From a virus: 64,000 bases of DNA. The stretch is taken from IMG/VR virus record IMGVR_UViG_3300042373_001362, positions 32,001 through 96,000 of that record; one strand, written 5' to 3'. Numbering within the stretch: the first letter of the stretch is position 1; every line of letters begins with the position of its first letter. Position numbers and translations under genes: made by a program. The notes beneath the pieces are model-generated. The model had not been told where the DNA came from. It searched no databases and worked only from the letters and a program-made list of their open reading frames with translations. Below, piece by piece: positions 10,986 to 55,354 of this stretch.

Positions 10986-10986
10986 T

Positions 10987-16283: not shown

Positions 16284-16316
16284 ACAACCGCTTATCCTGC
16301 AGAGACAAGCGGTTGT
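16284..16316 (-). terminator. hairpin, probable terminator after the short ORF
   Basis: ACAACCGCTT...AAGCGGTTGT inverted repeat, extending to ~13 bp with G-U pairs on the minus strand. Confidence 0.5.
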
Positions 16317-23438: not shown

Positions 23439-23536
23439 TTTTAGTATTTAGTTTTAGTAAACGACGCTAAAAACCTGAATACTTGCGGTTTCCATTGGTA
23501 TTTTCGTTTATTATCGAAGAAGACACAAGGAGTCAC

Positions 23537-26500
23537 ATGTCCTCTTCTAATAAAAAATCCGACATTCAGTACAAGGCTGCACCGCAAGGAATGGTGAATT
23601 TAGACGAGGCCCAAGGCATCGTCGAATGTTTTGTCGCTGGGATAGGCAACAAAGACTCTGTTGGTGACGTTTGCGCACCAGGAGCTTTCGGCAAGAGCCT
23701 TACCAGAAGGAAGCCACGAGTCGTATGGGGACACAACTGGAACGACCCCATTGGCAAGGTCATCGATATGTACGAGGTTCCACCCAACGACCCTCGTTTG
23801 CCAGCAAAGATGAAGGCTGCAGGAATTGGCGGTCTTTATGCTCGCGTTCAATTCAACCTTATGTCGGAAAAGGGTCGTGAGGCGTTTGCCAATGTTGCTT
23901 TCTTTGGTGAAGAGCAAGAGTGGTCTATTGGTTACAAAACAATCAATGCAAAATTTGACCCACAGATGCAAGCAAACATTCTTTATGAAGTAGAGCTTTA
24001 TGAGGTGTCTCCAGTTCTTCATGGTGCAAACCAGTTGACAGGAACAATTTCAGTAAAGTCGGAAGAGCAGCCATCTGGCGTTTCAGTAATTAATGCACCA
24101 AGCATTGATGGATTAAACGTAAATGAGCTTTCTTCTATTCTTGATGCACTCAAGGCTATTTCTTCTTCCGTTTCAGAAGACGAAAAGTGTGGACCAGGAA
24201 TGATGCCACAGGGAATGCCAGGAATGCCTTCTGGTGGACCAGGCATGCCTTCTGGGCCAAAGCCAATGCATACACATACCCCTGGTGCAGCACCAAGAGA
24301 AGTTGTTAAGCCACAAATTCCATCCATGCCAGAAAACCCAATGACCGTAGCGCTTCGCCGCGAACTTGCGACTCGCACCGGCTCAAACGTAATCGTGCGT
24401 TCAGCAAGCGACAGTGTCGTTGTTTTTGACAGAGTGCTGGCTGACGGAACGTCAAGCACATACAGACTGCCTTTCCATTATGCCGGTGGAGAGTTTATGT
24501 TTGGCAAACCAGAAAAAGTTCAGTCTCAAGCAAACTACGTCCAAGATTCTCCTTTGTCTGAAATCATGGTTGAAGCGCTTCTTTCTGGCCCCACTGCAGG
24601 CGCAGAAAAGTCTTTAATCTCTTTTGATGACCAAGAGTGGGGTGAAGGATTTGGGCAATCAATTCCGTCACAGCAAGTTGATGCTTCAACTTTGAATAGC
24701 GTTATCGCTAATCTTCAAAAAATAATCGAGCAGAAATCTGAATATGTTGTTCAAGTTGCTCCAGAACATGCTTTTGAAGTAAAGCAAGCGATAGACCCAA
24801 TTCTTGATTTCTACAAGGTTGACGCAACCATCAATGAAGATGGAATTGTTGTTAAGTCACTCAATGAAGACTTTTTGAACGCTCTTGACATCGCCACAAA
24901 AGGCGTATTACGCAGTCTTGGCAACCTTGCGGGTAGAGCAATAGACCGCCCTAATATTGGCAGAAACAGAAGAGACAGAACACCCAACCTTGCATCACGA
25001 GGCCCTGGAATTGGTTCACGAGGAGCGGTAGTAAGACTCCGTGATGGAAGCATGTGGGACCCAAAAAACGCACCGGATAGAAACCGTAATGGCATTGTAG
25101 GTGAAGGCCTCTTTGACAGTAGCGGAAGGTCGTTGGCACAGCCAGACCCAACACCAGAGGGGCCAGATTCTATCCGGGGAGCAAAGACACCAAAGTCACC
25201 GCAGACCCCTAAAAGGCAAGCAGCGGCTGCCGCAAAAAGAAACGCTACTGTAAAAAGAACTTCTGGGCAGCCCCAGAAAGCAAGGCAGCGTCTTTCTTCA
25301 GGCGGAATTGACCAAGAAGTTGACGATACACCAATGCTTGAGGAGAAGTTCAAGAAGGAAGTCTCTGGCTTTTTGTCTGAAATAGGAACAAACCGTAATG
25401 AGATAGAAAACATTCTTGACCTGTGGGAAAACAACGATGCAGACCATGACAAGTACATGGAAGAGCATGGAGCTGGTTCAAAAAACTTTGCTGAAAACGT
25501 GGCTTATGCAGCGTCAGCAATGTACGAAGACTACATCTCTGATGCGGGAGATAGGCAGGCTGACCGTCGTGCCGAGGGAGGGCGTTTCTCGTCTGGCGAG
25601 TGGACAAAAATTCCTGGTGTTGGCTATGAGATGGATGCCCCAGACATCGAAGGTGCTTACGAAATCCAAGAAGGCCTTGATGGGAAGTTCTATGTAGTTA
25701 GATTCTCTGATGGCAACCGCAACGGTGGTCAGGACATGACCGAATACGAACATGACAAGCCTTTCTCTACTCTTGCAGCAGCAAAGAAGTGGGCTGAAAA
25801 AGACTATGCACAAGCAGCGGACGAGTACATGCCAGATGAAGAAATGCCAGATGGTGATGCATCCGAAAGACTGAATAGCCTTGTTGCTCCAGAACTACCA
25901 AGCCTTGACGGCATGGACGAGTCTGAAGCAGATGAAGCCTTGCAAAACTTTAGTGACGAAATGTTCAGCTTTGTTAACGAGACAGAGAACATTGCCAGAG
26001 AAGTACTAGGTGACGACGAATACAACAAGAGATTTGGCGGAGCAGTGCCCCTCATTGAAGAGATTTCAAAGAGGCACGATGGAAGCATTGAGCAGCGTGA
26101 TATTGCTCTAGAAAATGCCTTTGACCAAGCAGAGAGGTTTAACAACTCTGTTAACGGTTCACTTGGCGGCGGAAGATTCTCTTCTGGTCAAATCGACTTC
26201 GACAAGATAGGTGAATCAGGTCTCAGGGAAATGCGCCATGTTGAGCGCAACCCTCTTAGATTTGATACACAGGCAGACAAAGATGCACGCGCTGCGTACG
26301 AACGGGTTGTAGCAAACTTTAGAGCAAACAACGGTTTCTTCCGTGAAGTGCCCATGTATGCAGGTGATAAAAAGTGGCACAGCGAAGACTGGTTCCGTGG
26401 CCGCGAGATGGCAGAAAACGTTGCCACCTTGCGATTTGGCGACCCGATTGACCAAATGCCGTTCTTCGATAAACCAGGAAAGCCATCAAAAAGAGAATTC

Positions 26501-29500
26501 TTCGAGAGAACTACGGCTGTTGATTACAAGTCCTGGTATATGACCAAAATTCCAGCCATGACGCAAGAGCTGGACAGAGTGCTTGCTTCCGACGCCTATT
26601 CAGATGAATACAAAGAAGCATTCCTAGAAGGAATGAGGACATTCTTCTACGTGAATAGGCCAAACCTTCAGTACGCTCCGAAAGATACACAGGCGCAGTA
26701 TGAAGAGTGGCTTCAGCGGTCAGGTCTCGGCTGGAAGGGTAGATACTCTACTTCTGGTCCAAAATTTGAAGACCTTGACGACACGGGAAGATTTTCTTCT
26801 GGTGCTAAAGACAAAAAAACAATCAATTCGTATGACAACTCGGAAGACCTTAAATCGGCGATGTTTAGCGCATTGTGGACAAACGGTTCACGTGACGAAA
26901 TAAACAACATGACAGCTGAAGAGCTGGCTGAAATACTAAGCGTAAATCCAGAATGGGTTGAACCTCTTCTTGAAGACACTAAAAAATACACAATCGAGGC
27001 AATGGACGATTATGATAAGTATTTATCTTCTCTTCCTGAGCCAACTGATGAAGAGATAAACCAGGAGTACCAAGAGTGGTTGTCGCGACAGGCTGGCGCA
27101 GACTACGCACAGGGCATGACTGTTAGAGACAAATTCCAGGACATGACCGACGAAGAGGCTGCAGACTACGCTGCATGGCTCGACGAAGAAACATGGAGAG
27201 ACAGAGACGATAGGTTCTCCTCGGGAGGAGGCAAAACACCTGAAGAGCGTCTTGAAGAATACAACAGAAGAAGTGCAGAAAAGAACGCAGTTCTTGAAAA
27301 GATGACTCCCGAAGAGCTAGAAGAATACGCTCGTGAATGGAATGAAAGTCATGTTGAAGATGTTCGTCTTTCATCTGGTTCAACAAATAGACCAAAGTCT
27401 ACAAAAACCGGAGAAGAATTTATTGGCCGTAGCTATGGTCTTCATGATTTCTTTGTCTACGACGAAGAAGACGATTTTGAAAACATCGACAAAGCTATTG
27501 TAGATTCGCTTCTTAAGAACGAAAGAATAACCCTTGATGACCTTTTGCTTGAAGTGCGAGGTATTAAGGACCCTGACCTTAGCGGAGAGGCATTGGTCCG
27601 CAGGCCGGACTATATGGGCGCAAACGCAAGGCGTGTTGCTGAAGCCGTTGCAAACAACACATCCGTTAATCCATCGCTGGCCAACCAGAAAGCCGGAAGA
27701 GAAGACATACTTCACTTTAGGTACAACGGTAAGCAGCGCTCCATATACCCAGAGACTTTTTCAACAAGCAAAAAGGGTGTTGGTTATTTTGTTGGATGGG
27801 ACGAAACCGCAGATAACGGCAACGGTGCATACAGAAGTTTCAATGTAGACAAAATAGAAGGTCTTATATCTAGCGCAATACCTCCACATGTAGACAGAGC
27901 AGCAAGGTATACCGATTATTCATGGAACATAACTGACTTCTCTGATGAAGATAATCAAAAAATTCTTGAACAGATGCGACGCACTAAAGAGTTCAGGGTT
28001 CTTGATGACGCGCAAGACCTGATAGACGATGAGGTGAGCGCAGGAGGCACAAGAGTTGCAGGCTCGACTCTTGATATTGCGGAAAAAGAAGCCCAAGCAG
28101 CTTTCCAGGATGCTCGCAATAGACAAATCGACAAGATGGTTGCCGACGGCAAAATTAAGCCGCTATCAAGAGATAGTAGATTCTCTTCAGGAATGGTTAA
28201 CGACGGTCTTCCAGACGGATACTGGGACACCGCAGACGACATGGCAGATTCTTATGGTGATAGAGAAGACTATACAGACGCAAGATTCTCCTCTGGTGGA
28301 ATGCCAAGCACCAAAGAGCAAGCAGACCTAATAGCGTTTGCTAGGTCAAAGCCTGGCACTTTTACAGACAGTGTTGTTTCTCAATTTGACAGAAATAGAA
28401 GACTGTCAGAAAAGCAATGGGACGCAATACGCAGAATGATGCGCGGCGCATCTGGTGGTAAGGCTGCTCCAAAAGCAGATAAACCAACTGCTCGTTTTTC
28501 TGGAAAGCGTCGTCAAATTGTAGATATTGCCGATATTGAAAAGTATGACTACCCAGAGCTTCCTGCAAAGATAAAGCCAACACCGGAACAAGACAGAGCT
28601 ATCGATGCGATGATGACTGGTGCAGACGTAAAGATTGGTGCTTTAGCAGCAACAGGAAAGACGACAACCGTTATCAACTTTGCTAACCGTCTTAAGGCTA
28701 AAGAGCCAGACGCAAGGGTTGTCTATCTCGTGTTTAACAGAAACGCAAAAGACGACGTAGAAAAGCGTGGAATGCCAGGAAACGTTTCTGTCTCAACGAT
28801 GGACGGAATTGCTTACAGAGCAATGGACGCTATCAACCCAGAAATGACCAAGAAGAGCTTTGACAAAAAAGAGGGCCACATAAAGCCAATCAACTCTTTC
28901 AAAGATAGGGCTAAGTATCTTGGTACAAAGGGAATGGTTTCCCAAGGCGAAGAATTGACCGATGTTGATGTTTATAGAATCGTAGCTAAAGCGATAGATG
29001 CCTATTCAATAAGCGACGACAAGGAAATTGGACCACAACACTTTACTGGCCCATACAACGGTTCATACAGGGTGACAGACACTTCATTGCTTCCTGAGTT
29101 GCTTAAGTATGCAAACAAGATGTGGGAAGACATGAATCTTCCTAGAGTCAATGGTGCCACCAGGAAAGACCAAAAAGGAATGCTTCCTGTAAACAACACA
29201 CATCTAACAAAGATGTGGGCATTGACAAATCCAGACATAAGCGAAATTGCTGAAGTCAATGTGGCAATGGTTGACGAAGCTCAAGACATGAACCCAGTTT
29301 TTGCTGGAATATTGAGGAACTCAAACCTTCAGAAAATCTACATTGGTGACACAAACCAGGCAATTAACGCATGGCGTGGAGCAGACGGAACAACGCTTGC
29401 AAATGTAGAAGCAACATACGACATGCCAATTACTGATTCGTTCAGATTCGGCAAGAACGTAGCGAACATGGGCAACAGATTCCTTTCGCTTCTCAATACA

Positions 29501-32500
29501 AAAGAGCGCATGACCGGAAGAAAGACAGACAAGTCTGGAAATCCTGTTGACGGAAGAATTGGACAAGTTGATAACCCAACAATGATTTTGACACGCTCTA
29601 ATGGCGGAGCTATCGCTGCAACCATGGAAGTGTTTGCAGATGGTGGAATTGTTTACGGAAGCCAAAACTTCAAGAGAGATTTGGAGAACTTCTTAAACAA
29701 CATCGAATGGATGCAGAATGCCCAAAAGGGCAAACCGTTCTATACAGACGTATATGGAAAGAAAGTATTTTCAGCTCCTGAGTTCAGTCAAGACCTTGAC
29801 GGAATTACAAACATTGCAGACTTCAATAAGGCTATTGAAAAGGGCGATGACAACAGACTGAACATGCTTTCTAAGCTGATGAACGAATACTCGCTTGAAG
29901 ACTTGAGAGAATCTCTCAATAACATCATTACAGACAAAAACAAGCTTCCAAAGAATCGTGACGAGTATGTCCACATCCAGACAGCCCACACATCAAAGGG
30001 CCTCGAATCACCACGAGTGAAGATTTGGTCAGACTTTAGAAAGCCAAAGAAACTTCCAAACGGTGAATGGGAATACCCGAACGAGCAGGAGATGAGGCTT
30101 TCCTATGTTGCTGTAACAAGAGCAGAGGAAGAACTTGACCTAGGTTCACTTAGTTGGATTCTTGACCACACAACAGAAGAGGACGGTATGCCGAATACTT
30201 TCTCTTCTGGAAGAAGCAAGGCAAGAGGCAACAGAGGTGATGGCAAGGGAAGACAAAAACCATGGTCGGCAGAAGATAGGCAAAGATTTGCGGACAGGGA
30301 CATTCTTCGTTCACAAACACGCCCAGGAAAGCGTCGTCCAGGTCCTTCAGCAAACGAATTCTCGTCTGGTGCTGAATTTGATTTCACTCCAGAAGAGCTC
30401 AATAGGTGGCAAAAAGCTAGCGAACATGCCAGCGCGTATGGCGATTGGGAAAATCTTCCAGAAAACAGAAAAAACGGATATCTTCGTAAATTCAACGGAG
30501 ATGAAAATCTTGCTCGCGAGCAATTTAACGTGGAAAGAGATTTGGCAGACTTTGCTGCAGATGCACAATTTGACAAAACAGATTCACGATTCTCTTCTGG
30601 AGGCCGCTTCGCAACACCACTGGATGCACCAGAGGGCTGGGAAATGCCAGAAATTGGTGATGACGGCGAAATAAAGAATGGACCGCTTAAGGGTTACTAT
30701 GTTCGTGGCTTCGGGGACGATTACGTACGAGGAAGAAAATACGTAAGCTATCGTGGTGCAGACTACAGTAGTACTGATGAGCACAAAAATAACTTAGTTG
30801 ATTGGGGTGATTACGAAGCGGGATACACCCTCGACAGAAACATAGGCTCTGACGAGGACATTAGGAGCATTTCTGACTCTTCCGAGCAAGAAGAAATGGC
30901 GCAGTATGGCGACGAAGGTTTGTACTATGGCAATAGTTCACGCGGGCGATACGACCCTCAAAATGATTATGAAACTCCAGTAACCGACGACTCCCATTCA
31001 CCAGAAAACGGTGCAGACCACATCGGTAAAGCCGTATCCGTAACGGATGAAAATGGAAACAAATTCTACGGTGTAGTTGTTAGAGGTTGGGAACCGGAAT
31101 ACGAAGAAGACTTAGATGTTGATGAGGATGGGTGGGCAACCCCGAGCATGAACATACAAGACGGTGGCATGGTAGTTCTCGCTACTCATGATGCTGACGG
31201 CAAAAAACTTGATAAACCAGTAGTTGTTGAGGCAAGTTTTGGTCTTGAAAATGAATACGCCCTCGTATCAAATGTTGAGAGAGGTGGAGACGACTACGAA
31301 GGGCCAAAGGTCAATGTATCAAAAGGCCGTGTAAGTGAAGAAACCCTTGACGAAGCCAAAAAGCTTTATGAAGAACTGGACCCATATAGAAATGGTAAAG
31401 CCGAGGAGTTCAGGCGTCAAGGAGCCTTGATAGATAGAGCATGGAGAATGCCGGGAGGCGAAAAAGAGCGCAGGGAAAAAGCTGCCGAAGAAGCTTACAG
31501 AAGAAGCCCTGAAGGAATACAAGAGCAAAGAGAAAAGCTAGAAGCATCCATATCGGCTATAGAAGACAAGATAAGAAGCGCGGAGTCTTCTCGTGAATCT
31601 CTCATGGAGAGGCTGAACGATGTTTCTGAAAGTGGAGACAATGTCCTTGCTTCAAAAATGGAAGAAATATTAAGAGACAGAGAGGGAGCGGTACGACTCC
31701 TCCAAGAAAGACTTGAAGAAGCAAAAGCTGAACTAGATGCTTTTAATGGCGAAGGAAACAGGCTTTCTTCTGGAAGATTTGCGCCTGATGGACAATCGGG
31801 TTCAAGGCTTCAAAGAAGACTTTCTTCTGGCGATGTTTTTGGCCCACCACCAGGACAGTCGGCAAGGTATGACCGCAAGAAGCAAGTCGAGGCAACGATG
31901 GGTGCATTCCATTCTGACCCAGGCAAGGCTGTTGTGTCGAGCGACACCGAAGGCTTATTGGGTAAAATCCCTTCCGGTAAGAACTCCCATATCCTTAACG
32001 CCGAAGCAGCTAAGAGAATAATTGCAGACCCAGATACAGAGTATTCAGCAGATACCGGATGGCCGGTAGATGCAGGAAGACTTCTTGATTTCATCGAAAT
32101 TGAGAATCCTCTTGGTGGACGTCCAAGCACTCTTCGTGATAAAGACGACGCACAGCTTATTGCAAGGGTTTTGGGTATACCAGTATCGGATGCTCAGGAC
32201 ATGCTTGACGGAAAGCCTGTATACATTGCCAGCTCAACTGCGGCTGACATGTTTGACAACCTTTCAAGAAGCAGAGAGTACACAGCAAGCGTTGGTGGAT
32301 TAAACGACGTAGCGAGAGTTTGGGGATTTGATGGCGCTCCAAAGTGGGTGCGTCATAGCGATATTGCTACTCCAGAATTTGACCTCGACGAAAACGACAG
32401 AGTTAACTGGTCGCAGGTTAAGTGGGATGGACTTTCGAGGGCTGACTTTGATGCAGCAGTAAGAAGAGGGAATAACCCACCAGAACCCGTATACACATCA

Positions 32501-35374: not shown

Positions 35375-35465
35375 GAATAGTAATCAGTACATACACCGCA
35401 ATACTTACTCGAATGATACGTTTAGAGTATAATTTACGGTACTTACCAATTAGGAGTCATCTTTT

Positions 35466-37016: not shown

Positions 37017-37033
37017 AGCAAGGACTACCCGAC

Positions 37034-40000
37034 ATGACGGGTACGTTTAAAACGAAAACAAGATTTTATACCTCTTCGCAATTTGTGACCCCTATTTCAG
37101 GGCGCAAGCATTTCGTTGACTCCGCTATTGATTTCAGGCGAGGCCTTATTGAGAACTCATCAATGGCCGTTCTTAATGCCGATATCGCTGTTAAGGCTGC
37201 AATGGGAGCAGGGCTCTCTTCGTCTTCTGCTTCTGTCGGTCAAAAAGCACAGGGCGGCACATCTCCCGATTCTGACGGCAAAAAGCGCGTCAACAAAGGT
37301 GGCGTTCCTGGAATGGAAGAAGACGCCAACGGCTATAGGTACATGCCTGAAGCAACATGGGGTCCAGATAAGGTCCTAAATCTTTTTCCATCTCAAGAGA
37401 ATAGACAGTCAACAGACAGAACTCCAAACTTTGGATTCATCGACAAGGGTCCAGTCATCACTCCAGAACAATACGTTCAAAAAATGGAGAACGAACCACG
37501 AATCAGGATGTCCAAATACAAAATCAACTCTAGAACTGGTGAGCCTATAGAGGACACTGAAGTTGAATTTGACCGAATGAGATTCGGAAAAACTTTTGAT
37601 ATCAATCCAGATGTATCTGATGAAATATCTGAATCAGTTTCAGAAGAAATACAGGAAAAAAGTTTAGGAAGAAGTCTTAAAGAAAGAATGCCCGGCGGAA
37701 GCCTTATCGGAAGAGCTGCTGCTCGATTTGGCGTAATTATGGATGAACTTGGGAAGATGAGATGTCCTCCAGGAACTCCAGCCGCAAACCAATTTACCGA
37801 CATGACGGGTTCAAACTGTTTTGGCACATCGCCAGGAACGTTGATATCCGAAGCAATAAACCTTGCTCAAAACCTTGTTCCAGAAGACGATTCAAGACGT
37901 TCCTCTCGCCTCACAAGAGGCATTGTGAATCTTATGTTCGACTTAGAAAACGGTTTGTTTGGCAACAACGTCTGGTATCACGCAGACGGAACAAGAATGA
38001 AGCACGGCGAGTGGCGCAAGTTTCGCGAAGCTGGTGGTGTAGCAAAAAATGAACGCTGGATGGTCAATGGTGTTGAGAGAGTACTTGCCGAATTGGACTC
38101 TCAAGATGCACGAATGGAAGACCTTTATAGCAAGCTTGGCATAGACGTAAGCGATGTCAGAAAAGCAACAAACGAAGATGTATTTGAAGCTTTTCAAAAA
38201 CTCAAAGATTCAGGTGTAATTAGAGCTCAGCTTAGGGGTAGGCCATCGGCGGCTCAAGTTGAGGCGATGATGACTGCTCGCTTGCAAAACATGGACGCCC
38301 ACTGGATAGCAAGAAGCGCTGAAGAAAGAAAAATACTACTTGATATCGAGGTTAAGCGGTATAGGGAGCTAGAGAGAGCCCACATGGAGGCTTTTCTAGA
38401 TGAGGTTATTAAAAACCCAGAGCACATGAAAACTATCGGTGACGTCACTTTTAACCCAGCCGGAAGAGACCGCGCATCGTTTGGGATATCTAGGATAGGC
38501 CCAGATGGCAAGCCAGTTGGCTCTATAAATATAGACATACCGATGTCGCTCAAGTTTCAGGACTCAATGTTGCCAAATCTTTCTCCAGATGAGAGGCTAC
38601 GCATTTGGGCCGAAGGTGGACAGTCTGAAGTTTTGAGAGCAATGGCTGTTAAAGATTTCCTTGTTAATTCTAACTCTCATGCTGGACAGATGATAGCGAT
38701 GGTTGATGGTGGTCGTGGCCTTGGTCGACACGACATGAAACACGAAATAGCCCACTCAATCCAAGCCGTTGCGATATTCAACCATATGAAGAGAGAGCTA
38801 GACGCACGTGGCTCGCTCGTTATAGACAATGGAGAAAACAAAGCGCCCACCGTAATAACGGACGTAAGTCAACTTAACTCTGACATGCTTATGGCGTTGA
38901 TGGCTAGAGAAAACTTTATGGGCATTGACCTCAACTCACTAAAAGACCTCAGGTCTAGAGGTGACGTTGTTGCTTTTCTCGCTGGAAAATATATTGACGA
39001 AGTGCAGGCTCAATACGGAGGCATGAGAAGAGCGGCAGAAATAGGTGCAGAATTATGGTCACTCCGCAGTTCTGGTTTAATTTATGGCGATGACGTTGAT
39101 GCGGCTCTTGAATATATGGATGATGTTGCTTCTGGGGCGATTACAATTGATAGGACAGTTTCGGACGAAATTTTAAACAGAAGAGTTTATGAAGAATACC
39201 TCGATGGCTCCCGAAGGATACGCGAAGCCAGGGAGGAATCCGAGAGGCTCGCTGAAGAGGCTGAAGACGGGGAGTTTTTTGACGCGGAAGGAAGGGCGTC
39301 TGCCGAAAGGCTTTCTGCTGCCAGAGAAGCATACGCAGCAGAAAAACGCGCAGAAGTAAAAGAAGTAAAAGAAGCAGCAAAAACAATGTCTGAAGAAGAC
39401 ATGATTGACTTCCTCGCCGATGCGACAGAATCTTCTGATGTTCTGACAGAAATGCTTGATTCAGTAGAAGAAGCAGGTGAGGAACCTGACTGGATGTCTG
39501 TCATGGACAGAGACACTCTAGATGCAATGTCAAAAGCGGTTGTTGATGAATGGGTAAAAAGGTTTACCGTAAGAAGAAGCCCTGAGGCTATGGAAAAGCT
39601 TCAGAAAATGATTGACGACAAGCGTGAATCAAAAGGAACACTTTCTCCAGAAAAGGTTGAAGAGCGAAGATTTAGACAGTTCATGGAAGGTGCTGCTGAG
39701 CGGGCACAAGAAATGGGCCTAGAAGACCTTGTTCAGGCATACTCTGACTGGGAAGAGCTCGCTACTGGAGAAGGCGTTGATGGCGTCGACAGGGCACGCA
39801 GAAAAGAAATGCGTGATATGTACAGGGACGAGTACATAAAGAGAAGAACAGAAGGTCCTGACTCTGTTTCCAAAGAAGACGCACGCAAAGAATTCAACTC
39901 AAAGTTTAAGACACTTCGCAAGCCAAAGACAACGGCTGCTCGCGAAAGAGAAAAAAGAGCAAATCCGAAGAAGTTTAAAACTCATAACGGTAAAGATGGA

Positions 40001-43000
40001 GCACGAACTTTTGCTACCGCAGAAAGAGAAAGACTTCTCGAAGGTGCAACAACAGAAGAAAAAATTGCTCTTGTCGAAATGGGAAGCGGTGAAACTGACG
40101 TAATCAACATGATGAATGGCAGTTCCGAAGGAATGGCATCTGCTAGAGCTATCCAGAGAAGAAACACCAGACTTAAGAAAAATGGAGTTCTTCCTGATGA
40201 ATTAAATCATCATGAGGCGTCAATAGAAGAACAGGTAGAAAACTTCTACATACCACTTCTTGAATTGATGGACAAGTCCTCCCTGTCTCAAACTGTAGAA
40301 ATGCACATCGACAGCAATGATGATGCTATGAAGTACGTGGAAGACCTTCTTAATGGCGGAAGTCCAGAATTCACTGTCGGTATTGGAACCGGAACACTGG
40401 TTACAAGCAATACAGACTTTTCAGACGGCAAAAAGATAGTTATCCGCGTCCCAGAGGGAAGTAGGGCTGTTTTCCCGGACTGGTCTTTTTATTCTGACTC
40501 CGACAACGGTGAGCAGAAAATGATGATTCCACCGTCAAAGTTTCACCTTGTTGAAATTCGGGATGACGGAACAGTCGTTCTTGAGGTTGGAGAACAAAAA
40601 GGAACCGAAGAAGTTCTCAAAGATGCGATAGAGGAGATATCCCCTAGCGCTGGTGACAGTGACTTTGCATACAGAGAAGGCCTCAAGAAGAAGGTTGGCA
40701 GGGTAGTCGACAAGAGAATTGCGGAGCGTCGCAGACAGGGTATGTTTGACCCAGAAAAGCGTTCTCCAGTTGAAGAAGAAAGATTCTCTGCTAGTGCAGA
40801 CAACGCTGCTGCTGCTGCCGGTTTTGAACCAGACCTTCCACCAAGGCCAACCACTCCACCGCCAACAGGCGATTCACCCAACAAGCAGAGAGGAGTGAAA
40901 AGAAGACAGGCTTCAGCTGCGATTGACCGCGTAGTAAATCCAAACAATAGAACTGAAGACTCATGGCAGAAGGAAAGAAGAGCTAGACAAGAGCTGGATG
41001 CAATACACGCATACATAACCGGTGAAGGCGCATATCAAAATAGAACCAATCGAGTCGGTCGTAAAATAGCTCAAATGATGGAAGAAGCCTTCGGCACATC
41101 AAACATAAACGAACTAACCGAAGACCAAAAGTACGACTTAATTGATTTAATTTCTCAAAGATTAGATGCCAAGCTAAGAATAGACAACAACGGCTCTTAT
41201 GACGACAGAAGAAGCTTATCGCAATTCAAAAGCAGAATTCAAGACCACATTGACATTTCAAAAATGCTTGATTCAAATGACTTTAGCGACCCATATGGCA
41301 GCGATGGCTATGACATCGATTGGTCATCAATAGACACAACGCCTGATAGGCCTGAAAGATTCTCTTCCGGAGCCAAATGGGGGCAGATGCCTTCTAGCAA
41401 CGAACAAATAGATGGTCTTCTTGATGCATCAAACAATGATGGATTTAATGAGATTTATGGTTCACCACAAACTCGTGAAGAGCGAATTGCTCAGATGGTT
41501 GAAATGCAATCCGAAGTTCTCACTTCATTGAGAGAAATGATTGACAATGTTCCCGGCTCTGGAGACGAATTAGGACTTGAAGCCTCAAGCATTGACCCAG
41601 TAATCATGGACCTCATCAAGAACTCATCCGACGAAGAGATATATCAGATTATTTCAAAGGCCGCTATGGACTTGCATCAAAGTTTTGACTCACGACCACG
41701 TGTACGAATGAGACAAGATGAGCTTGATAACTTCCTGAAGACTGGAAGATACGGAAGAGAGTCTTCTTTTGATACCGATGCCAATAGATTTTCTTCAGGC
41801 AGGATAAGCAAAGGCATCAGGGCTAGAGCCAAAGATAAAGCAATAGAAATGATTGCTGAAAGAATTGGCAAAGATGAGGACTCACGTGAAATAGCAGAGA
41901 TGGTCCTAGACACTGTTTCTGCTCTTAAGTACGGCCCAGAAGCCGCCCTGACGCGCTTGGCGATAGACCTCGGAAGACGAGGAAGCCGAGATATTGCTGA
42001 AAGAACATTAGAAGAACTTGTTAGTAGAGGGAAACTCACAGACGAGCAAGCGAAATCTATATTGTCAAAAATGGACAGGTTTGCCCCAGACGGTCTTCCA
42101 GAACCAATCAAGAGAGGCGTCGGTTCGGCTGTTCGTGCCGCAGCAGACGCAATCGATACTCCAGAGAACAGAGAAAGACTGGACAGGGCTCGTGAAGCAG
42201 CAGGAGAAGCTGCAGGCAGAGCCAGGGAAGCTGTCGGTGAAGGTGCAAGAAACGTAGCCGAACGAGGTCGTGAGAGACTTAGAAGACTTAGGGAAAGAGA
42301 CGACAGAGGCGAAATTCCATCTTCTCCAGAAGATGTTCCATTTGGCGACTTTGACCCAGCGGATACAATTTTTTCAAGCGGCAGAAGACTCGACAGAAGA
42401 GTTGCTAGCTCGGAAGCTGGCCGTGAAAGAATCATGGATGGGGCAAAGAAGACCAGAACAAGATTCAGCAGCGGAGAGACGCCAGAACTTAAAGAGCCAA
42501 AGAAGCCAAGCAGGCCACGAGAGCCAGATAATGGCCCCATGACTGGAAAGTTCATCGACATCTTCAAGGGTGTTAAGTCATATAAAGAGATGCTCGATAG
42601 ATACAACGAGCAAGAAGTTATCTTCTTTGACTACGAGACAACTGGCTTTGACCCCAAAGTTGAAAGACCCGTTCAAATTGGTGCAGTAAAGATGAAGGGC
42701 GGAAAAGTTGTTGAAAGGTTCAATATCTTCGTAAACCCAGAAAAAGAACTTAGCGATTGGTCAAAAGCAAACCTCGTAGATGCTGACGGTAATCCACTAA
42801 CAAACGATTGGCTAAATAATCAGCCATCAATAGCAGAAGCACACCAACAACTTATTGATTTCTTTGGGCCTGATGCACTTCTTGGTGGACAGTTCACCCC
42901 GTTTGACCTTGGGTTCCTTGAAGAGTCACTCAAGAATGCCGGAATAGAATGGACTCCTGCTGGCGTTATTGACAGCAAGGCGCTTGCAGACGAGCTACTT

Positions 43001-46000
43001 CCAAAGTGGACACCAGAAACCGGCGATGGACCATTTGCTTTGAACGACGACGGCAGTAAATATGCTACTAACAGCCTTGGGCCCCTATCTGAGTACCTTG
43101 GCGTGGACCTCAAGGCATGGCATACGGCAGATGCTGACTCTGAGGCATCTGCAATGATTGTCCAGAAGATTCTTGAGCGTGCGGCCGAAAGAGACGACAC
43201 TCCAAAGCATCTGCTAAAAGTTGAAAACATGCCTGCAATCGTCAACGAGCGTAGAGCAAAGCACAAGTTGGCAATGGATAAGTACTTTGCTGACATGAAG
43301 CAGTACAAGGCAGACATGGAAGCCTATAACGCTTCTAAATCTGACTCAGGAGGCGGAACAAGATTCTCTTCCGGCGGGAAAGCCGACCCCATGGTCATCA
43401 AGACAAATGGTCGATACGGCGACACCAGCGGAAAGAGCGATTTTAGCTCAGATGAGCTAAAGACAATAGACGAAATAACCGAGCGTCTATCCAACTCTGA
43501 TTTGAATCTGGCGTGGTTTTCGTTAGAGAACGAAGACGGAACAGCCACATCTTCGCCATTGATTAACTTTAACGGCAGGCCAATAGCTGTTGTTCGTATT
43601 GGAGAACAGAACATACCGTTTTATAGAAGTACCGGAAGTGGCGGCAAAGACCCAAGCAGGTTTGTTCCAAACAAATGGTATCCATTCTGGGGGTATAACG
43701 CGTCTGGTCAGTGGTTTATAAAAAACGAAGAAATGGAAAACTATTACGGGATACCAGAGCTGGAAGAAATATCTAAACAACTGGACACCCTTACGGATGG
43801 TCTTCCAAAGTTAAAGGCATCAACAGAGTGGCGTAGCGTCGCAAACATAGAGACCGGCCAAATGGATGATGATTTTAGAGGTTTAATAAATGGAACTGCA
43901 TTTAGAAATGCTGACTCGCTTTATAACAGACGTGACATAACAAATCACATTACTGTATCTAAGAAAAAGACGAGAGACGAAATAAAGTTAATGAAGAGAG
44001 ATGCCTTAAAGGCCTCAAGAGATGGCAATACTCCTCCAGGGGTTGATAGGTTCTCTTCTGGAGAAACATATAGAGAACTGGTTAGAACTGAAGGAAGGCC
44101 ATCAGAAAAGCAAAAAGAAGCAATTTCTGATGTTAAGGACATTCTAAGAAATAACGAGTTTGGCATTGCTGACGAGTTTGACGATGAATACGAAGTAGTA
44201 GACAGTCCAAGAAGGGCTGAACTGAAGGCGAAAGTTGCTGAAAAGATTTCAGAAGCTTTCTCTCACGACATAGAAGCAAGAGAAGATGTCGTTGTTACCG
44301 CTAAGAATGGCGAAAAAATAAACCTAGGAAAAGATTTCAAGATTGAAATAAGCGAAATATCTGTAGATGTTGACACTTATGACGAAGAAACTTTAGAAGC
44401 AATCAAAGAGCAACAGTTTTACGATACTCCTACTGGCTCAATGAGCGACTCCCCAAGCACTTTAATATCGATGAAGATATCAATAAAGCCAAAAGACGAG
44501 GAAGCAGCAAAGCGCCTTGAGCAGGCAGGTATCCCGGAGCTTCTATTGCCAGACTATTTTGACGGAACCCCAGGGGCCGACGATGTAAGGGTTGGATTCT
44601 CATCAAGAAACTTAGTAATAAATGGCAACGAAATGCATGCAACGCATGAGTCACTATTCCTCAGGGATGAAGCTCAAGGGAAAGGCATAGGAAGTCTATT
44701 CAACGCTAAGAATGAAGGAGTCTATGAAGAGCTTGGCGTTAGAAGAATCCTCACCAACGGTCAATCCTCTGAACTTGGAGAATCTGAAGGTGGAACACAT
44801 TGGCCAAGAAATGGTTTTACGTGGGCCGGAGAACAGAGCAAACAGGACTTTATTAAGGTTATAGACCGAGCCCTGAAGAGAAGAAAGAGCAAATTCTCTG
44901 AAGAAGAATACGCAAGAATAAGTTCTTTATATAGAAAGAACCCCTCAACTAGGAAGTTCGAAACAGACGCATCAGCAGAAGAGCTTGTCGATTTTGCTTA
45001 TGCAGATGAACTGTTTAAAGAACAGGATGCAAGCTTCATGTTTAAGCGCGACATTGAGCTCGTATCTGCCGGTAGTCCGAGATTCTCTTCAGGTGGAACA
45101 AGGTTCTCTTCTGGGGCGTCTGGAGCAGCAAGAGCTGGAATAAACAGAGATATATATGAAAGAGAAGGGGGCAGACCCTCGGACAAGCTGGAGCCATCAT
45201 CTTTGTTAAGAAAATCATCAGACGGAAAAGACTCTTCTGCTCTAGAAATAAATGGCAAAACATATGACATTAAGTCACTCAAAAACGAAGACGGAAACTT
45301 TTCTGTATTTATAGAAAATGAAGACGGTAAAAAAATTGCTGAGATTGTTTTAAACCAGGAGCCAACATCTTATGCATCTATAGTTTCAATATCATCGGAA
45401 GAAGATGCACAAAAAGCTGGAGCGCTAGAAGGAATTTTAGACTCTTTGTTAATAAATAATCCTGACGCAACGTTTAGGAAAACAGAAAAAACAGCAGAAT
45501 GGTTCAACTACGTAACCAATGGCATGGCTGACTATGGGCTTCAGGGAAGCAGACAGGTTGGTTTCTCCGGAAAGTTCAGCGATGGAGAAAGAGCTACACC
45601 CGATGGCGACTATACGTTAAGTTCGTTTTTAAGATTTAAGCCGAAAAGAAATTCATCTAAAACGCTAAAATCCGATAAAAATTCTTTTTCAGAGTATTCA
45701 TATAAGTGGAACGGGGAAATATTTGATATCGGAGGAGAGTCATTAGTATTTGGCGCACCTGAAGATGCGGAATTTGAAGATAGTTCTATAAAAAAGATAA
45801 ATCTGAATCCATTTGAAATACTGGGTCTTGAGCCAACTTCAGAAGAAGGCAGAGATGCTGCCATGAAATGGATGTCAGCAATACACGGCGCATCAATATC
45901 CATAATATCTGACGGTCAAGAATTTAAACCTAGCACCTATGTTAGTGCTCTTCTTTACGCCTCTTCAAAGGGGGATAAGAAAGCAGCAGAAGAATTAGAC

Positions 46001-47506
46001 GCATTGGCAAAACGTTCAAGTGATTGGCTTGCAAAGCTAAAAGAAAAAGAACAAAAGATTGAAGAAACTGGAAATGCTTTGCCGCTCAATTCTAGGCTTG
46101 TTCACCAAACGTCATACAAGCCAACAATAGATAAAGACGGATATCTAGTCCTTCGACCACTAGAGGACTTTCCACAAAAATCGAACGATGGCTCTGACGT
46201 AACTGTTAACAGAACAACGCTGCATTTAGCAATCAATCACCTTGCAGAAGGTCATATGTTTAGGCAGGAAACACAAGGTAAGTCTTACATTGTAATGATG
46301 CCTCTTGACTCTTTTATGGACCAAAACCCAGATAGCCTCGAAAATCTTTCAATAGTTGACACTGCAGCAACACCCCCACCAGGAGATGGCTTGCGCATGG
46401 CTCCAGGAACATTCAAAGTTATAGAGGTCGATGAGGGCGGGAATGGTCGAAGGATGGTTGAAGATGCTCTCAGAGAAGATGGCGTAGGCGTTCTAGTCGG
46501 TGGTGACAGGTCTTCCGGAACTCCAGGAGCAGATAAAGCAGCCGAAGCTAGGGCGCGGATGCTTGGAGTGTCTAATAACGTTGCGTCTGACCTGCCGTTA
46601 ACAGTGTTTGAAACTATTAACAGGACAAGCATATATGAGCAGTCTCGCTATGCCGATGTTCCTGCAACTACCGAAATTATGCAAACTGCTAGCAAAAATA
46701 CACTCATGAGAATGGCCAACAGAAGAGAAAACGCATGGACAGCATTTGATAAAGAAGTAGTAGCAACAGACTTTTTGTCTAGCGGTGAAGTAAAAGCCCC
46801 AGCAGAACCAAGAACACGGAAGCCAAAGCGAGTAAAGAAGTATAAGGGCTACGACCTTAACGAGCCAGACAATCCGGCTCCTAAGCCGGGAGAATTCCCT
46901 GATGATGTTGTTGAGGCTGCAACAAAACATAGGGCAGAGATTGAAAAGGTAGAAGCGGAAATAACAAAGCTTCTCATTGACTTGGCCGAAAAGAATAAAG
47001 CCCGTATGGAAGGTCTTGATTTTAGGCTTAAAGCTCTGAAGTCACTAATGCGCAAGATAGCTGCAGAAAAAGACAGCGAGCATGGTGGAGACGCAGAAAA
47101 AGCAGCGAAGTCCATGTCTGATGTTGTTAGGTACACGATGTCCTACGGCCCAGAAGATTACGTTGCTGGCGTAAAAGACGTTGTAGCAGAAATGCAGAAA
47201 CTTGGGTATGACCTTAGAATTAAGAACTACTGGAAGGGCGGCGACCCATACCAGGGAATCAACGTTGCCGTAACACACCCCGATGGAACAAAGTTTGAAC
47301 TGCAATTCCATACTCCACAATCTGTGGCTGAGAAAGAAAAAATTCACGTAATGTATGAGGAGTACAGAACATCAAAAGACCCAGGTCAGAGATGGGAGTT
47401 GTACCAGCGGATGGTTGAAATAGCTAACCAAATAGGTGTACCTATTCCACCAGAAGAACTGCTAACTATCGGCCAAGTGAAAGAACAGCCATTCCAGGCG
47501 GAGTAA
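37034..47506 (+). CDS. giant polyprotein 2: zincin, ART-like, DEDDh exonuclease, GNAT, RelA/SpoT-type C-terminal domain
   Basis: Continuous 3490-aa ORF with AAGGA RBS; nine xFSSG/xLSSG delimiters. Confidence 0.9.
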   Translation: MTGTFKTKTRFYTSSQFVTPISGRKHFVDSAIDFRRGLIENSSMAVLNADIAVKAAMGAGLSSSSASVGQKAQGGTSPDSDGKKRVNKGGVPGMEEDANGYRYMPEATWGPDKVLNLFPSQENRQSTDRTPNFGFIDKGPVITPEQYVQKMENEPRIRMSKYKINSRTGEPIEDTEVEFDRMRFGKTFDINPDVSDEISESVSEEIQEKSLGRSLKERMPGGSLIGRAAARFGVIMDELGKMRCPPGTPAANQFTDMTGSNCFGTSPGTLISEAINLAQNLVPEDDSRRSSRLTRGIVNLMFDLENGLFGNNVWYHADGTRMKHGEWRKFREAGGVAKNERWMVNGVERVLAELDSQDARMEDLYSKLGIDVSDVRKATNEDVFEAFQKLKDSGVIRAQLRGRPSAAQVEAMMTARLQNMDAHWIARSAEERKILLDIEVKRYRELERAHMEAFLDEVIKNPEHMKTIGDVTFNPAGRDRASFGISRIGPDGKPVGSINIDIPMSLKFQDSMLPNLSPDERLRIWAEGGQSEVLRAMAVKDFLVNSNSHAGQMIAMVDGGRGLGRHDMKHEIAHSIQAVAIFNHMKRELDARGSLVIDNGENKAPTVITDVSQLNSDMLMALMARENFMGIDLNSLKDLRSRGDVVAFLAGKYIDEVQAQYGGMRRAAEIGAELWSLRSSGLIYGDDVDAALEYMDDVASGAITIDRTVSDEILNRRVYEEYLDGSRRIREAREESERLAEEAEDGEFFDAEGRASAERLSAAREAYAAEKRAEVKEVKEAAKTMSEEDMIDFLADATESSDVLTEMLDSVEEAGEEPDWMSVMDRDTLDAMSKAVVDEWVKRFTVRRSPEAMEKLQKMIDDKRESKGTLSPEKVEERRFRQFMEGAAERAQEMGLEDLVQAYSDWEELATGEGVDGVDRARRKEMRDMYRDEYIKRRTEGPDSVSKEDARKEFNSKFKTLRKPKTTAAREREKRANPKKFKTHNGKDGARTFATAERERLLEGATTEEKIALVEMGSGETDVINMMNGSSEGMASARAIQRRNTRLKKNGVLPDELNHHEASIEEQVENFYIPLLELMDKSSLSQTVEMHIDSNDDAMKYVEDLLNGGSPEFTVGIGTGTLVTSNTDFSDGKKIVIRVPEGSRAVFPDWSFYSDSDNGEQKMMIPPSKFHLVEIRDDGTVVLEVGEQKGTEEVLKDAIEEISPSAGDSDFAYREGLKKKVGRVVDKRIAERRRQGMFDPEKRSPVEEERFSASADNAAAAAGFEPDLPPRPTTPPPTGDSPNKQRGVKRRQASAAIDRVVNPNNRTEDSWQKERRARQELDAIHAYITGEGAYQNRTNRVGRKIAQMMEEAFGTSNINELTEDQKYDLIDLISQRLDAKLRIDNNGSYDDRRSLSQFKSRIQDHIDISKMLDSNDFSDPYGSDGYDIDWSSIDTTPDRPERFSSGAKWGQMPSSNEQIDGLLDASNNDGFNEIYGSPQTREERIAQMVEMQSEVLTSLREMIDNVPGSGDELGLEASSIDPVIMDLIKNSSDEEIYQIISKAAMDLHQSFDSRPRVRMRQDELDNFLKTGRYGRESSFDTDANRFSSGRISKGIRARAKDKAIEMIAERIGKDEDSREIAEMVLDTVSALKYGPEAALTRLAIDLGRRGSRDIAERTLEELVSRGKLTDEQAKSILSKMDRFAPDGLPEPIKRGVGSAVRAAADAIDTPENRERLDRAREAAGEAAGRAREAVGEGARNVAERGRERLRRLRERDDRGEIPSSPEDVPFGDFDPADTIFSSGRRLDRRVASSEAGRERIMDGAKKTRTRFSSGETPELKEPKKPSRPREPDNGPMTGKFIDIFKGVKSYKEMLDRYNEQEVIFFDYETTGFDPKVERPVQIGAVKMKGGKVVERFNIFVNPEKELSDWSKANLVDADGNPLTNDWLNNQPSIAEAHQQLIDFFGPDALLGGQFTPFDLGFLEESLKNAGIEWTPAGVIDSKALADELLPKWTPETGDGPFALNDDGSKYATNSLGPLSEYLGVDLKAWHTADADSEASAMIVQKILERAAERDDTPKHLLKVENMPAIVNERRAKHKLAMDKYFADMKQYKADMEAYNASKSDSGGGTRFSSGGKADPMVIKTNGRYGDTSGKSDFSSDELKTIDEITERLSNSDLNLAWFSLENEDGTATSSPLINFNGRPIAVVRIGEQNIPFYRSTGSGGKDPSRFVPNKWYPFWGYNASGQWFIKNEEMENYYGIPELEEISKQLDTLTDGLPKLKASTEWRSVANIETGQMDDDFRGLINGTAFRNADSLYNRRDITNHITVSKKKTRDEIKLMKRDALKASRDGNTPPGVDRFSSGETYRELVRTEGRPSEKQKEAISDVKDILRNNEFGIADEFDDEYEVVDSPRRAELKAKVAEKISEAFSHDIEAREDVVVTAKNGEKINLGKDFKIEISEISVDVDTYDEETLEAIKEQQFYDTPTGSMSDSPSTLISMKISIKPKDEEAAKRLEQAGIPELLLPDYFDGTPGADDVRVGFSSRNLVINGNEMHATHESLFLRDEAQGKGIGSLFNAKNEGVYEELGVRRILTNGQSSELGESEGGTHWPRNGFTWAGEQSKQDFIKVIDRALKRRKSKFSEEEYARISSLYRKNPSTRKFETDASAEELVDFAYADELFKEQDASFMFKRDIELVSAGSPRFSSGGTRFSSGASGAARAGINRDIYEREGGRPSDKLEPSSLLRKSSDGKDSSALEINGKTYDIKSLKNEDGNFSVFIENEDGKKIAEIVLNQEPTSYASIVSISSEEDAQKAGALEGILDSLLINNPDATFRKTEKTAEWFNYVTNGMADYGLQGSRQVGFSGKFSDGERATPDGDYTLSSFLRFKPKRNSSKTLKSDKNSFSEYSYKWNGEIFDIGGESLVFGAPEDAEFEDSSIKKINLNPFEILGLEPTSEEGRDAAMKWMSAIHGASISIISDGQEFKPSTYVSALLYASSKGDKKAAEELDALAKRSSDWLAKLKEKEQKIEETGNALPLNSRLVHQTSYKPTIDKDGYLVLRPLEDFPQKSNDGSDVTVNRTTLHLAINHLAEGHMFRQETQGKSYIVMMPLDSFMDQNPDSLENLSIVDTAATPPPGDGLRMAPGTFKVIEVDEGGNGRRMVEDALREDGVGVLVGGDRSSGTPGADKAAEARARMLGVSNNVASDLPLTVFETINRTSIYEQSRYADVPATTEIMQTASKNTLMRMANRRENAWTAFDKEVVATDFLSSGEVKAPAEPRTRKPKRVKKYKGYDLNEPDNPAPKPGEFPDDVVEAATKHRAEIEKVEAEITKLLIDLAEKNKARMEGLDFRLKALKSLMRKIAAEKDSEHGGDAEKAAKSMSDVVRYTMSYGPEDYVAGVKDVVAEMQKLGYDLRIKNYWKGGDPYQGINVAVTHPDGTKFELQFHTPQSVAEKEKIHVMYEEYRTSKDPGQRWELYQRMVEIANQIGVPIPPEELLTIGQVKEQPFQAE
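38400..39130 (+). other. zincin-like metallopeptidase domain
   Basis: HEIAH at 38741-38755 and downstream AAEIGAEL. Confidence 0.55.
42617..43180 (+). other. DEDDh (DnaQ-like) 3'-5' exonuclease domain
   Basis: FFDYETTG, QIGAV, PFDLGFL, IDSK, WHTADAD. Confidence 0.88.
44630..44830 (+). other. GNAT acetyltransferase-like core
   Basis: LFLRDEAQGKGIG (acetyl-CoA motif A) ... GGTHWPRNGF. Confidence 0.7.
46880..47503 (+). other. RelA/SpoT-type nucleotidyltransferase (toxic alarmone synthetase-like)
   Basis: RLKALKSLMRKI, DVVRYT, KNYW, YQGIN, FELQFHTPQS. Confidence 0.85.
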
Positions 47507-55312: not shown

Positions 55313-55354
55313 TTATTGGATGATGTAGAATATAAAAAACAAAAAGGTGCACCA

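Follow-up and report, generated by a model that had tools for sequence, protein, structure and literature searches.

We analyzed a 64,000-nucleotide stretch of viral DNA (positions 32,001 to 96,000 of IMG/VR record IMGVR_UViG_3300042373_001362; hereafter the window, whose coordinates are used throughout unless stated), which belongs to a complete phage genome of 148,355 bp; the genome has direct terminal repeats. Its head operon contains two very long open reading frames (ORFs) on the plus strand, giant 1 (23537 to 35374, 3945 amino acids [aa]) and giant 2 (37034 to 47506, 3490 aa), which as intact products are chains of 430 and 385 kDa. Both are punctuated by a pentapeptide, x-[FL]-[SA]-S-G, most often RFSSG or RLSSG, which we call the tag. 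An earlier note on this DNA had read the tag as a cleavage or ejection signal that releases about 25 cargo proteins from two capsid-loaded precursors. We conclude that the tag, which joins the cargo modules of two head-operon polyproteins, is probably a site that a phage-encoded protease recognizes in trans and cuts.

Tag sites in the two giants

The operon runs from the portal gene through giant 1, a 516-aa acidic protein, and giant 2 to several unassigned ORFs and the major capsid gene. The portal protein (21360 to 23438, plus strand, 692 aa; PHROG 2662/12 portal, E = 6e-60) lies directly upstream of giant 1. The giant 1 ORF was listed as 23483 to 35374, but its likely start is the ATG at 23537, which is preceded by AAGGAG. 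Giant 1 consists of a protease-headed carrier followed by 16 tag-delimited segments, and giant 2 consists of a tag-free carrier of 1445 aa followed by nine.

The 25 tag sites reported in the earlier note, 16 in giant 1 and 9 in giant 2, were all recovered at the same nucleotides. Nineteen of them read R[FL]SSG; the rest are TFSSG (twice), EFSSG, IFSSG, FLSSG, and RLASG. On the plus strand of giant 1, RLSSG at 25289 to 25303 ends the carrier and is followed by RFSSG at 25583 to 25597, 26174 to 26188, 26789 to 26803, and 27212 to 27226; RLSSG at 27365 to 27379; RFSSG at 28178 to 28192 and 28283 to 28297; TFSSG at 30197 to 30211; EFSSG at 30356 to 30370; RFSSG at 30587 to 30601; RLSSG at 31760 to 31774 and, 19 aa past it, at 31817 to 31831; the variant RLASG at 33386 to 33400, which is RMSSG in close relatives; TFSSG at 33485 to 33499; and RLSSG at 34229 to 34243, directly ahead of an ArdC module. 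Giant 2, on the same strand, has RFSSG at 41357 to 41371 (its first tag) and 41786 to 41800, IFSSG at 42368 to 42382, RFSSG at 42461 to 42475, 43361 to 43375, and 44048 to 44062, a tandem pair of RFSSG spaced 7 aa apart at 45080 to 45094 and 45101 to 45115, and the variant FLSSG at 46772 to 46786.

The earlier note proposed counting the motif against a composition-shuffled null, and it lies far above that null. In 500 composition shuffles of the giant proteins, [FL]SSG occurred on average 0.15 times in giant 1 and 0.19 times in giant 2, with a maximum of 2, compared with 15 and 9 observed; R[FL]SSG occurs 12 and 7 times, against about 0.01 expected. An unbiased k-mer scan returned RFSSG, FSSG, and FSS as the most overrepresented 5-, 4-, and 3-mers of both giants. 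In the rest of the 148-kb genome, there are just five [FL]SSG in frames of at least 100 aa, and two of the five are in the tape measure protein. The enrichment, 50- to 1000-fold, is confined to the two giants and the tape measure protein.

The note had further argued that the codons of the tag vary and that the peptide itself is selected. The variation is real: Arg and Gly codons in the tag follow the background usage of both genes, the second Ser does not depart from it significantly, and some tags are spelt quite differently (AGC AGC and TCA AGC for the Ser pair, for example). Usage is skewed, however, at Phe, with TTC in 15 of 18 cases (background, 40%; p = 2e-4), and at the first Ser, with TCT in 16 of 24 (background, 30%; p = 0.006), and the word TTCTCTTCTGG occurs five times on the plus strand, in the giants only. 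Since codons differ at several sites and the tag also appears in the minus-strand tape measure gene, these patterns point clearly to the peptide as the main selected unit, with a modest sameness at the DNA level.

Carriers and cargo modules

The carrier module of giant 1 (aa 1 to 588; 23537 to 25300) is conserved in 541 IMG/VR relatives. It comprises an S78 prohead serine protease, a PGMP-rich linker, two small α/β domains, and a disordered tail that reaches the first tag. The protease domain (Peptidase_S78; 23618 to 24049, plus strand) matched Pfam PF04586 at 37.5 bits against a cutoff of 21 and also PHROG 80, head maturation protease (E = 2e-28). His66, Ser130, and His162, which by analogy we take to be the catalytic triad, are invariant in an alignment of 31 relatives (A1). 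An AlphaFold2 model of the carrier built with 31 relatives places the protease at aa 28 to 160 and shows confident α/β domains at aa 268 to 325 and 383 to 464, followed by a tail of low predicted local distance difference test score (pLDDT) that starts at aa 463 and runs up to the first tag (aa 586). With this multidomain query, Foldseek listed the proteases of Epstein-Barr virus, herpes simplex virus 2, pseudorabies virus, varicella-zoster virus, and human cytomegalovirus, together with T4 gp21, at E values of only 0.05 to 0.3. Repeats of PGMP, PGAP, or GMPP occur in the linker past the protease (24150 to 24330) and in the portal ORF (21360 to 23438), and they are found in nearly all relatives (L001 to L080).

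Past the carrier, tags divide giant 1 into pieces that measure, in order and including the carrier, 588, 98, 197, 205, 141, 51, 271, 35, 638, 53, 77, 391, 19, 523, 33, 248, and 377 aa. A UvrD-like superfamily 1 (SF1) helicase (28583 to 30136, plus strand; Pfam UvrD-helicase, E = 8e-10, and UvrD_C, E = 4e-9) is the sole domain of the 638-aa segment. The last segment has the layout of ArdC, with an ArdC-N domain (anti-restriction, single-stranded-DNA binding; 34253 to 34615, plus strand; PF08401, E = 2e-25) followed in its C-terminal half by an MPTase-PolyVal zincin (34700 to 35077, plus strand; PF18818, E = 1.5e-43).

The corresponding sizes in giant 2 are 1445, 143, 194, 31, 300, 229, 344, 7, 557, and 240 aa. 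One of its modules is an RNase_T domain, a DEDDh 3′-5′ exonuclease (42620 to 43156, plus strand; PF00929, E = 3e-16). In its last module, there is a weak RelA/SpoT-like match (47024 to 47359, plus strand; PF04607, E = 0.0026, 18.4 bits against a cutoff of 27), which is a lead only. Of the domains named in the earlier note, the SF1 helicase, ArdC, and the DEDDh nuclease were thus found by Pfam and RelA/SpoT stayed below threshold, while WYL and GNAT gave no match in single-segment searches even at E ≤ 1.

The tag-free carrier of giant 2 contains a further domain that the note had not listed, a zincin-like metallopeptidase region at aa 400 to 759 (38231 to 39310, plus strand) with HEIAH (aa 570) at 38741 to 38755. 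The pattern HExxH..Q..GxY..E is invariant across clades: H171, E172, H175, Q178, G252, Y254, and E270 are the same in all 15 sequences of alignment A2, which share 15 to 26% identity outside close relatives. An AlphaFold2 model of the region had a predicted template modeling score (pTM) of 0.67. In an exhaustive structural comparison of this model, zinc peptidases dominated; the best match was the catalytic domain of anthrax lethal factor (Z, 7.7; root mean square deviation, 3.6 over 160 residues), followed by thermolysin (Z, 5.5), ERAP1 (5.5), and the Pro-Pro endopeptidases (PPEP; 5.4), with fungalysin, aminopeptidases N, and SprT/Wss1 also at Z values of 4 to 6. All Z values were below 8, and the region has no Pfam match. 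A sequence profile search of PDB gave no match to it, a feature-based protein atlas gave unnamed clusters only, and Foldseek found nothing below E = 0.001 for this model or for the giant 1 carrier. Because the Z values are middling and Foldseek and Pfam were empty, we call the domain zincin-like.

None of the tags lies inside a Pfam domain (S78, UvrD helicase, ArdC-N, MPTase, or RNase_T), in agreement with the earlier note. Its count of about 25 cargo proteins was too high: the 27 segments comprise two carriers (588 and 1445 aa), six spacers of 7 to 35 aa, and about 19 to 20 domain-sized modules.

Modules as evolutionary units

For a comparison of modules, both giants were split at their tags, and six relatives were searched with every segment. 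Among the 27 segments, no paralogy was seen at E ≤ 1e-3; they are unrelated, as the note had held. Individual modules are shared with relatives as whole units. The 205-aa segment of giant 1 (aa 884 to 1088) aligns over its full length with a tag-bounded segment in relatives L005 and L001. A 53-aa module that follows the helicase here precedes it in L019, and L001 has a 391-aa module that L005 lacks. In L019, the counterpart of the giant 2 RNase_T module is part of giant 1, where tags at 3055 and 3422 flank it. When uncut sequences served as queries, 23 of 56 ends of high-scoring segment pairs (HSPs) fell within 10 aa of a tag, compared with 8.5% by chance, although these HSPs are not mutually independent. 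The sequence comparisons therefore indicate that the modules are swappable evolutionary units, gained, lost, reordered, and in one case moved between the giants, with their borders at the tags; a comparison of homologues for module swapping at the motif was a check that the earlier note had proposed.

The surroundings of the tag also look like linkers. The hydrophobic fraction of the 12 residues on each side is 0.18 and 0.16, against 0.27 overall, and no value this low occurred in 5,000 random sets. Of 47 aligned junctions, 36 have the tag in the relative as well; identity is 83% in the core and 56% in the flanks, and the changes are mainly swaps among F, L, and M, which suggests that the tag is under purifying selection at junctions. 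Taken together, the hydrophobic-poor linkers, the break points at tags, and the better conservation of the tag than of its flanks bear out the motif-delimited cassette architecture that had been proposed.

Clade-specific tags in relatives

An IMG/VR pattern scan with the first 582 aa of giant 1 returned 541 relatives, and 80 loci were fetched and compared. Throughout the fetched loci that include upstream DNA, a portal-sized ORF is followed by a long S78-headed ORF. The shortest complete protease-headed ORFs have about 1,030 aa, and the longest have more than 3,900. Close relatives, with carriers 58 to 75% identical to that of giant 1, have 13 to 17 copies of R[LF]SSG. The more distant clades have no R[FL]SSG, and each has its own top overrepresented word: GLRS; GLAS[TSE], with 9 copies in 2105 aa; GFSSST; GFAS[TS], with 8 copies in 2161 aa; and, in the GMRSR clade, 15 exact copies (23 including F/L variants) in one 3661-aa protein. 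The core common to all clades is [R/G]-(F/L/M)-[S/A/R]-Ser, and an Arg or Lys usually precedes it by a few residues. In a maximum-likelihood tree of the carrier module, the R[FL]SS, GFAS, GFSS, and GLAS sequences each formed one well-supported clade; the GLRS sequences did not.

Giant 2 is kept as well, with matches across clades in its N-terminal 300 aa and in a region near aa 1060 to 1240. The layout recurs in homologues of 2567 and 2933 aa, where tagged modules come after a tag-free carrier of about 1340 aa. Across clades, giant 2 bears the tag of the genome that it belongs to: GFSS and GFAS in the clades of those names, and GLRS or GLAS elsewhere. One junction, the tag at 41786 to 41800 before a conserved module past giant 2 aa 1586, can be aligned across four clades; it reads N-RFSS-G here and GFASTS, GLASFT, or GFSSTT in the others, according to clade. 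Because the tag is kept at junctions, uniform within a genome, variable between clades, and present on unlinked genes, it very likely has a trans-acting reader.

One clade of relatives (L036, L037, L049, L056, L059, L066, L071, L075, and L077) has protease ORFs of only 1027 to 1261 aa with zero to three tags (GLRS; GARS in L077), and the first tag, if there is any, lies directly past the conserved carrier module. These short ORFs may represent an ancestral state before cargo expansion. In L031, from the GLAS clade, a cargo module of the ORF at 9980 to 16294 (aa 1158 to 1195) gave subthreshold matches to sigma-70 region 4 and helix-turn-helix domains, so the cargo may include transcription factors.

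The tag outside the giants

On the minus strand, genes for the tail sheath (8227 to 9759), the tube (7733 to 8212), and a tail assembly chaperone (7136 to 7675), all assigned with PHROG, are followed by a gene of 1703 aa (1792 to 6903). The protein itself has no family match. Because its gene comes after those of the sheath, tube, and chaperone, we assign it by position as the tape measure protein, and the phage is therefore a myovirus. It carries the tag KLSSG at aa 38 to 42 (6778 to 6792, minus strand) and RFSSG at aa 743 to 747 (4663 to 4677, minus strand), the latter in a Gly-rich stretch.

Homologues from five other clades all have a tag-like motif in a Gly-rich stretch in the middle of the protein, where they carry G-[FLM]-[ASR]-S. 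Three of the five also have one at the place of the first tag, so that a motif near aa 40 is found in four of six proteins, this phage included. The sequences are TFASAS and GFASSS in the GFAS clade; GLATT, then GGLASA and YGLASS in the GLAS clade; GGGMSSK and QGMRSQ in the GMRS clade, both mid-protein, with none near aa 40; SGLASST, then GGGFASR twice in the GFSS clade; and NGLASA, in mid-protein only, in the GLRS clade. The motif is thus of the clade's own type in three homologues (GLAS, GFAS, and GMRS) and only approximately so in two (GFSS and GLRS, which have GFAS or GLAS forms).

Head proteins behave differently. Neither the portal protein nor the 516-aa acidic protein (35466 to 37016, plus strand) has the tag, and the homologues of the acidic protein in close relatives lack it too. 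The major capsid protein (HK97 fold; 53888 to 55255, plus strand; PF05065, E = 1.5e-41) is 72 to 79% identical across tag clades. We examined its leader for the clade tag: before a conserved SIGEMF it reads QLSSR here and SLGSS, SVYGSQ, GRTSFK, and GLERGK in others, and it does not track the clade.

The 516-aa protein is very acidic and scaffold-like, with the Cys-rich stretches CAKMGADVSGC, CAKCG, and CDDCPGGC. Its C-terminal domain, 'GSFPIKNESDLRNAI', occurs in phages of Gordonia and Microbacterium as part of one fusion protein with the capsid maturation protease. From this arrangement, a protease-scaffold gene appears to have been split, with the 516-aa protein as its scaffold half. Since the domain that ends the Gordonia protease-scaffold fusion ends a separate protein here, it looks as if the cargo was inserted into an ancestral protease-scaffold gene.

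Proposed mechanism and candidate readers

We propose that the whole family shares one kind of junction tag, with the core [R/G]-hydrophobic(F/L/M)-[S/A/R]-Ser, of which R[FL]SSG is the form used in this clade, and that the tag would connect cargo modules that fold and evolve independently. HK97-type prohead proteases become incorporated in the procapsid. The S78 carrier module could in this way bring giant 1 into the procapsid, and giant 2 would enter the capsid by means of its own 1445-aa zincin-bearing carrier. One carrier would load many modules, among them the helicase, the ArdC-like anti-restriction protein, the DEDDh exonuclease, and about 15 without an assigned function. A phage peptidase would then cut at the tags, either inside the capsid or after ejection, and module-sized proteins would be delivered along with the DNA. 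The same reader may also trim the tape measure protein at its two sites. We infer all four elements of this scheme (cleavage, encapsidation, ejection, and which enzyme reads the tag) from context.

Two peptidases are candidates for the reader, and both S78 and zincin-like domains are present in every clade examined for them. Our tentative first choice, by a small margin, is the giant 2 zincin-like domain. It appears to diverge fast enough to have coevolved with the variable positions of the tag. Zincins usually take a hydrophobic residue at P1′, and this preference would fit a cut between [R/G] and [F/L/M]. A similarly tentative second choice is the S78 head protease. It heads the chain in all relatives, and its putative catalytic residues are invariant. 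By analogy, the fixed positions of the tag (hydrophobic, x, Ser) would match the P3-x-P1 spacing typical of proteases of the S78 fold. Otherwise, both peptidases together or another phage enzyme may read the tag. As a general reader, the ArdC-type MPTase-PolyVal was ruled out, as complete protease giants of the GLAS, GFSS, GFAS, GLRS, and GMRS clades have no MPTase. A complex prediction of S78 (A1 residues 19 to 182) with a 36-aa RFSSG linker scored 0.01 against a mark of 0.32; this result counts neither way.

Several points weigh against this scheme or against one of its candidate readers. Residues 19 to 175 of S78 are almost invariant across clades with differing tags. Its presumed substrates, the portal and the scaffold-like protein, are tagless, the region ahead of SIGEMF in the major capsid protein does not vary with the clade tag, and the tape measure protein, although tagged, is assembled outside the capsid. 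The head protease therefore need not be the reader, given its near-invariance, the lack of the tag in its presumed capsid substrates, and the zincin-like alternative, which is an equally good candidate. The zincin-like domain for its part has only a middling fold match and no Pfam match, and it could be no reader at all but an effector directed against host proteins. Since the Phe and Ser codons of the tag are skewed, part of the sameness of the tag within the genome may come from copying of linker DNA along with the modules and not from selection by a reader. No close relative in culture turned up in the phage collection searched (megablast of giant 1 against cultured phages gave no match), and no cut at the tag has been observed.

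A bolder extension of the scheme, which we consider possible though doubtful as a whole, is that a large family of uncultured myophages of actinobacteria, with at least 541 contigs, has a protease-tag cleavage code of its own, which coevolves with its reader. Placing any module between tags behind a carrier would then turn it into an effector that is loaded into the capsid and injected. The reader would be the giant 2 zincin, possibly acting only after ejection into the new host, and not the head protease; the same code would govern processing of the tape measure protein.

Alternative explanations

The strongest competitor of a processing site is an uncut linear motif, which we regard as unlikely. 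The tag would then be a docking or spacing signal on the capsid interior, the portal, or DNA, or punctuation for threading through the tail, and the giants would stay intact. The absence of an observed cut is as expected if this were so, and the linkers around the tags are flexible and in many cases basic. Another ejected protein, the tape measure protein, has the tag, and the N4 virion RNA polymerase is packaged and ejected uncut (PMC5512222). A docking signal, however, is a poor fit to the variation between clades, as the candidate partner, the major capsid protein, is 72 to 79% identical where tags differ. Tandem tags 7 and 19 aa apart and the swapping of modules between chains look instead like redundant cut sites. 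Finally, a protease permanently tethered to 3,400 aa of cargo would be unusual.

It is improbable that the tag is read by a host enzyme, be it a protease, a Ser/Thr kinase, or a glycosyltransferase, after injection or late in infection. The invariant Ser with its small or polar neighbors would suit a modification site, and differences between clades would be differences between hosts, as the host is probably actinobacterial and the clades may infect different ones. But the tag matched no known host recognition motif, two conserved phage peptidases accompany the system in every clade examined for them, and a modification site would leave the coincidence of the tag with module borders and swap points unexplained.

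Very improbable is the view that the tag is a relic or tool of module exchange at the DNA level, through microhomology or co-copied linkers, with a peptide that has no reader: modules do swap at tags, TTC and TCT are overused in them, and the five copies of the repeated word are confined to the giants, but Arg and Gly codons are at background, the second Ser is not significantly off, several tags have quite different codons, the common DNA is at most about 11 to 14 nucleotides, the unrelated tape measure gene on the opposite strand is tagged with the clade's own version in several clades, and the tag is retained at aligned junctions despite diverging flanks.

Comparison with known systems

One close precedent for such chains is the polyvalent proteins of phages and conjugative elements (Iyer et al., 2017), single polypeptides that combine two to fifteen or more unrelated conflict or effector domains and are predicted to be delivered with the DNA and processed by built-in peptidases, including a zincin (PMC5512222). 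The giants fall within this definition, with unrelated effector domains and a peptidase (PF18818 and PF04586) in the same chain. As in the polyvalent proteins, an SF1 helicase, ArdC-N, an MPTase zincin, and a nuclease are combined with a virion-linked domain. The giants are far longer, however, at 3.5 to 3.9 thousand aa and with 17 and 10 segments. That paper, so far as read, describes no repeated junction motif, and it places an assemblin-like peptidase at the C terminus (PMC5512222), whereas here a clade-variable tag marks the swap points and the tape measure protein, and S78 is N-terminal.

Another likeness is to the prohead proteases. Herpesvirus assemblin, of a related fold, cuts at hydrophobic-x-Ala/Ser, and T4 gp21 uses an L/I-x-E motif and a capsid targeting sequence. 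The prohead proteases phiKZ gp175 and SPN3US gp245 cut packaged or ejection proteins at A-x-E (PMC10052503). In T4, phiKZ, and SPN3US, as here, a short motif with fixed P3/P1-like spacing occurs on many proteins, which in those phages are delivered with the DNA. Their substrates are separate genes with N-terminal propeptides, whereas two genes here hold about 20 modules. Their capsid protein and portal bear the motif; here, the portal and scaffold are tagless, the capsid protein is off-tag, and a tail protein is tagged. The protease, too, is of the S78/HK97 type and is fused to its presumed cargo, unlike those of the three phages. Cleavage was measured in them, while here we infer it from sequence.

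Picornavirus 3C sites and retroviral Gag-Pol are further examples of one frame that yields many proteins, with an embedded protease and a short junction consensus that coevolves with its reader. The likeness is one of logic only, without homology, since this is a double-stranded DNA tailed phage with ordinary operons. A polyprotein here would serve cargo loading and delivery and not genome economy.

Among cultured phages, the nearest head module is that of Gordonia phages (ChisanaKitsune gp30 and GMA6), with S78 38 to 40% identical, the capsid protein 48% identical, and the same C-terminal 'GSFPI..DL.NAI' domain. Gordonia gp30 is a single 501-aa protein made of protease, acidic scaffold, and C-terminal domain, whereas here 3,400 aa of cargo follow the protease and the acidic part is separate. 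We checked gp30 for tag repeats and found none. A search of the literature, incomplete in its coverage, found no protease-headed polyprotein of such size, no clade-specific genome-wide junction tag, no traffic of modules between chains, and no case of the same tag on a tape measure protein.

Should the tag be a cut site, sequence data would suffice to list the injected proteome of an entire phage family, and each segment between tags would be a candidate early effector. The swap points show a cassette-style trade in effectors among phages. Were the proposal true, a double-stranded DNA tailed phage would be using a polyprotein strategy, the clade tags would form a natural set of potentially orthogonal protease-site pairs, and the loading of cargo into capsids might be given a design rule. 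Through its presence on the tape measure protein, the tag ties head cargo to tail processing, which is not so in T4, phiKZ/SPN3US, or the polyvalent proteins compared here.

Probable host and neighboring genes

The host of the phage is probably an actinobacterium, because the genome has three WhiB-family genes and the nearest capsid and protease sequences are from Gordonia, Brevibacterium, and Microbacterium phages, the capsid protein being 48% identical and the protease domain about 40%. The WhiB genes lie at 135239 to 135430, 461 to 652, and 92706 to 92921 of the genome (G000:C1), the last of which is 60706 to 60921 of the window. From the G+C content of the window, 41 to 51%, a low-GC actinobacterium seems likely.

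Other genes of the window include the terminase large subunit, found in the PHROG search (19802 to 21118, minus strand). Proteins with DUF3721 and DUF6321 domains are encoded on either side of the major capsid gene (52570 to 53724 and 55316 to 56017). Within the tail and structural region, at 12957 to 14096 on the minus strand, there is an auxiliary gene similar to phosphoadenosine phosphosulfate (PAPS) reductase (PHROG 2302, E = 9e-74).

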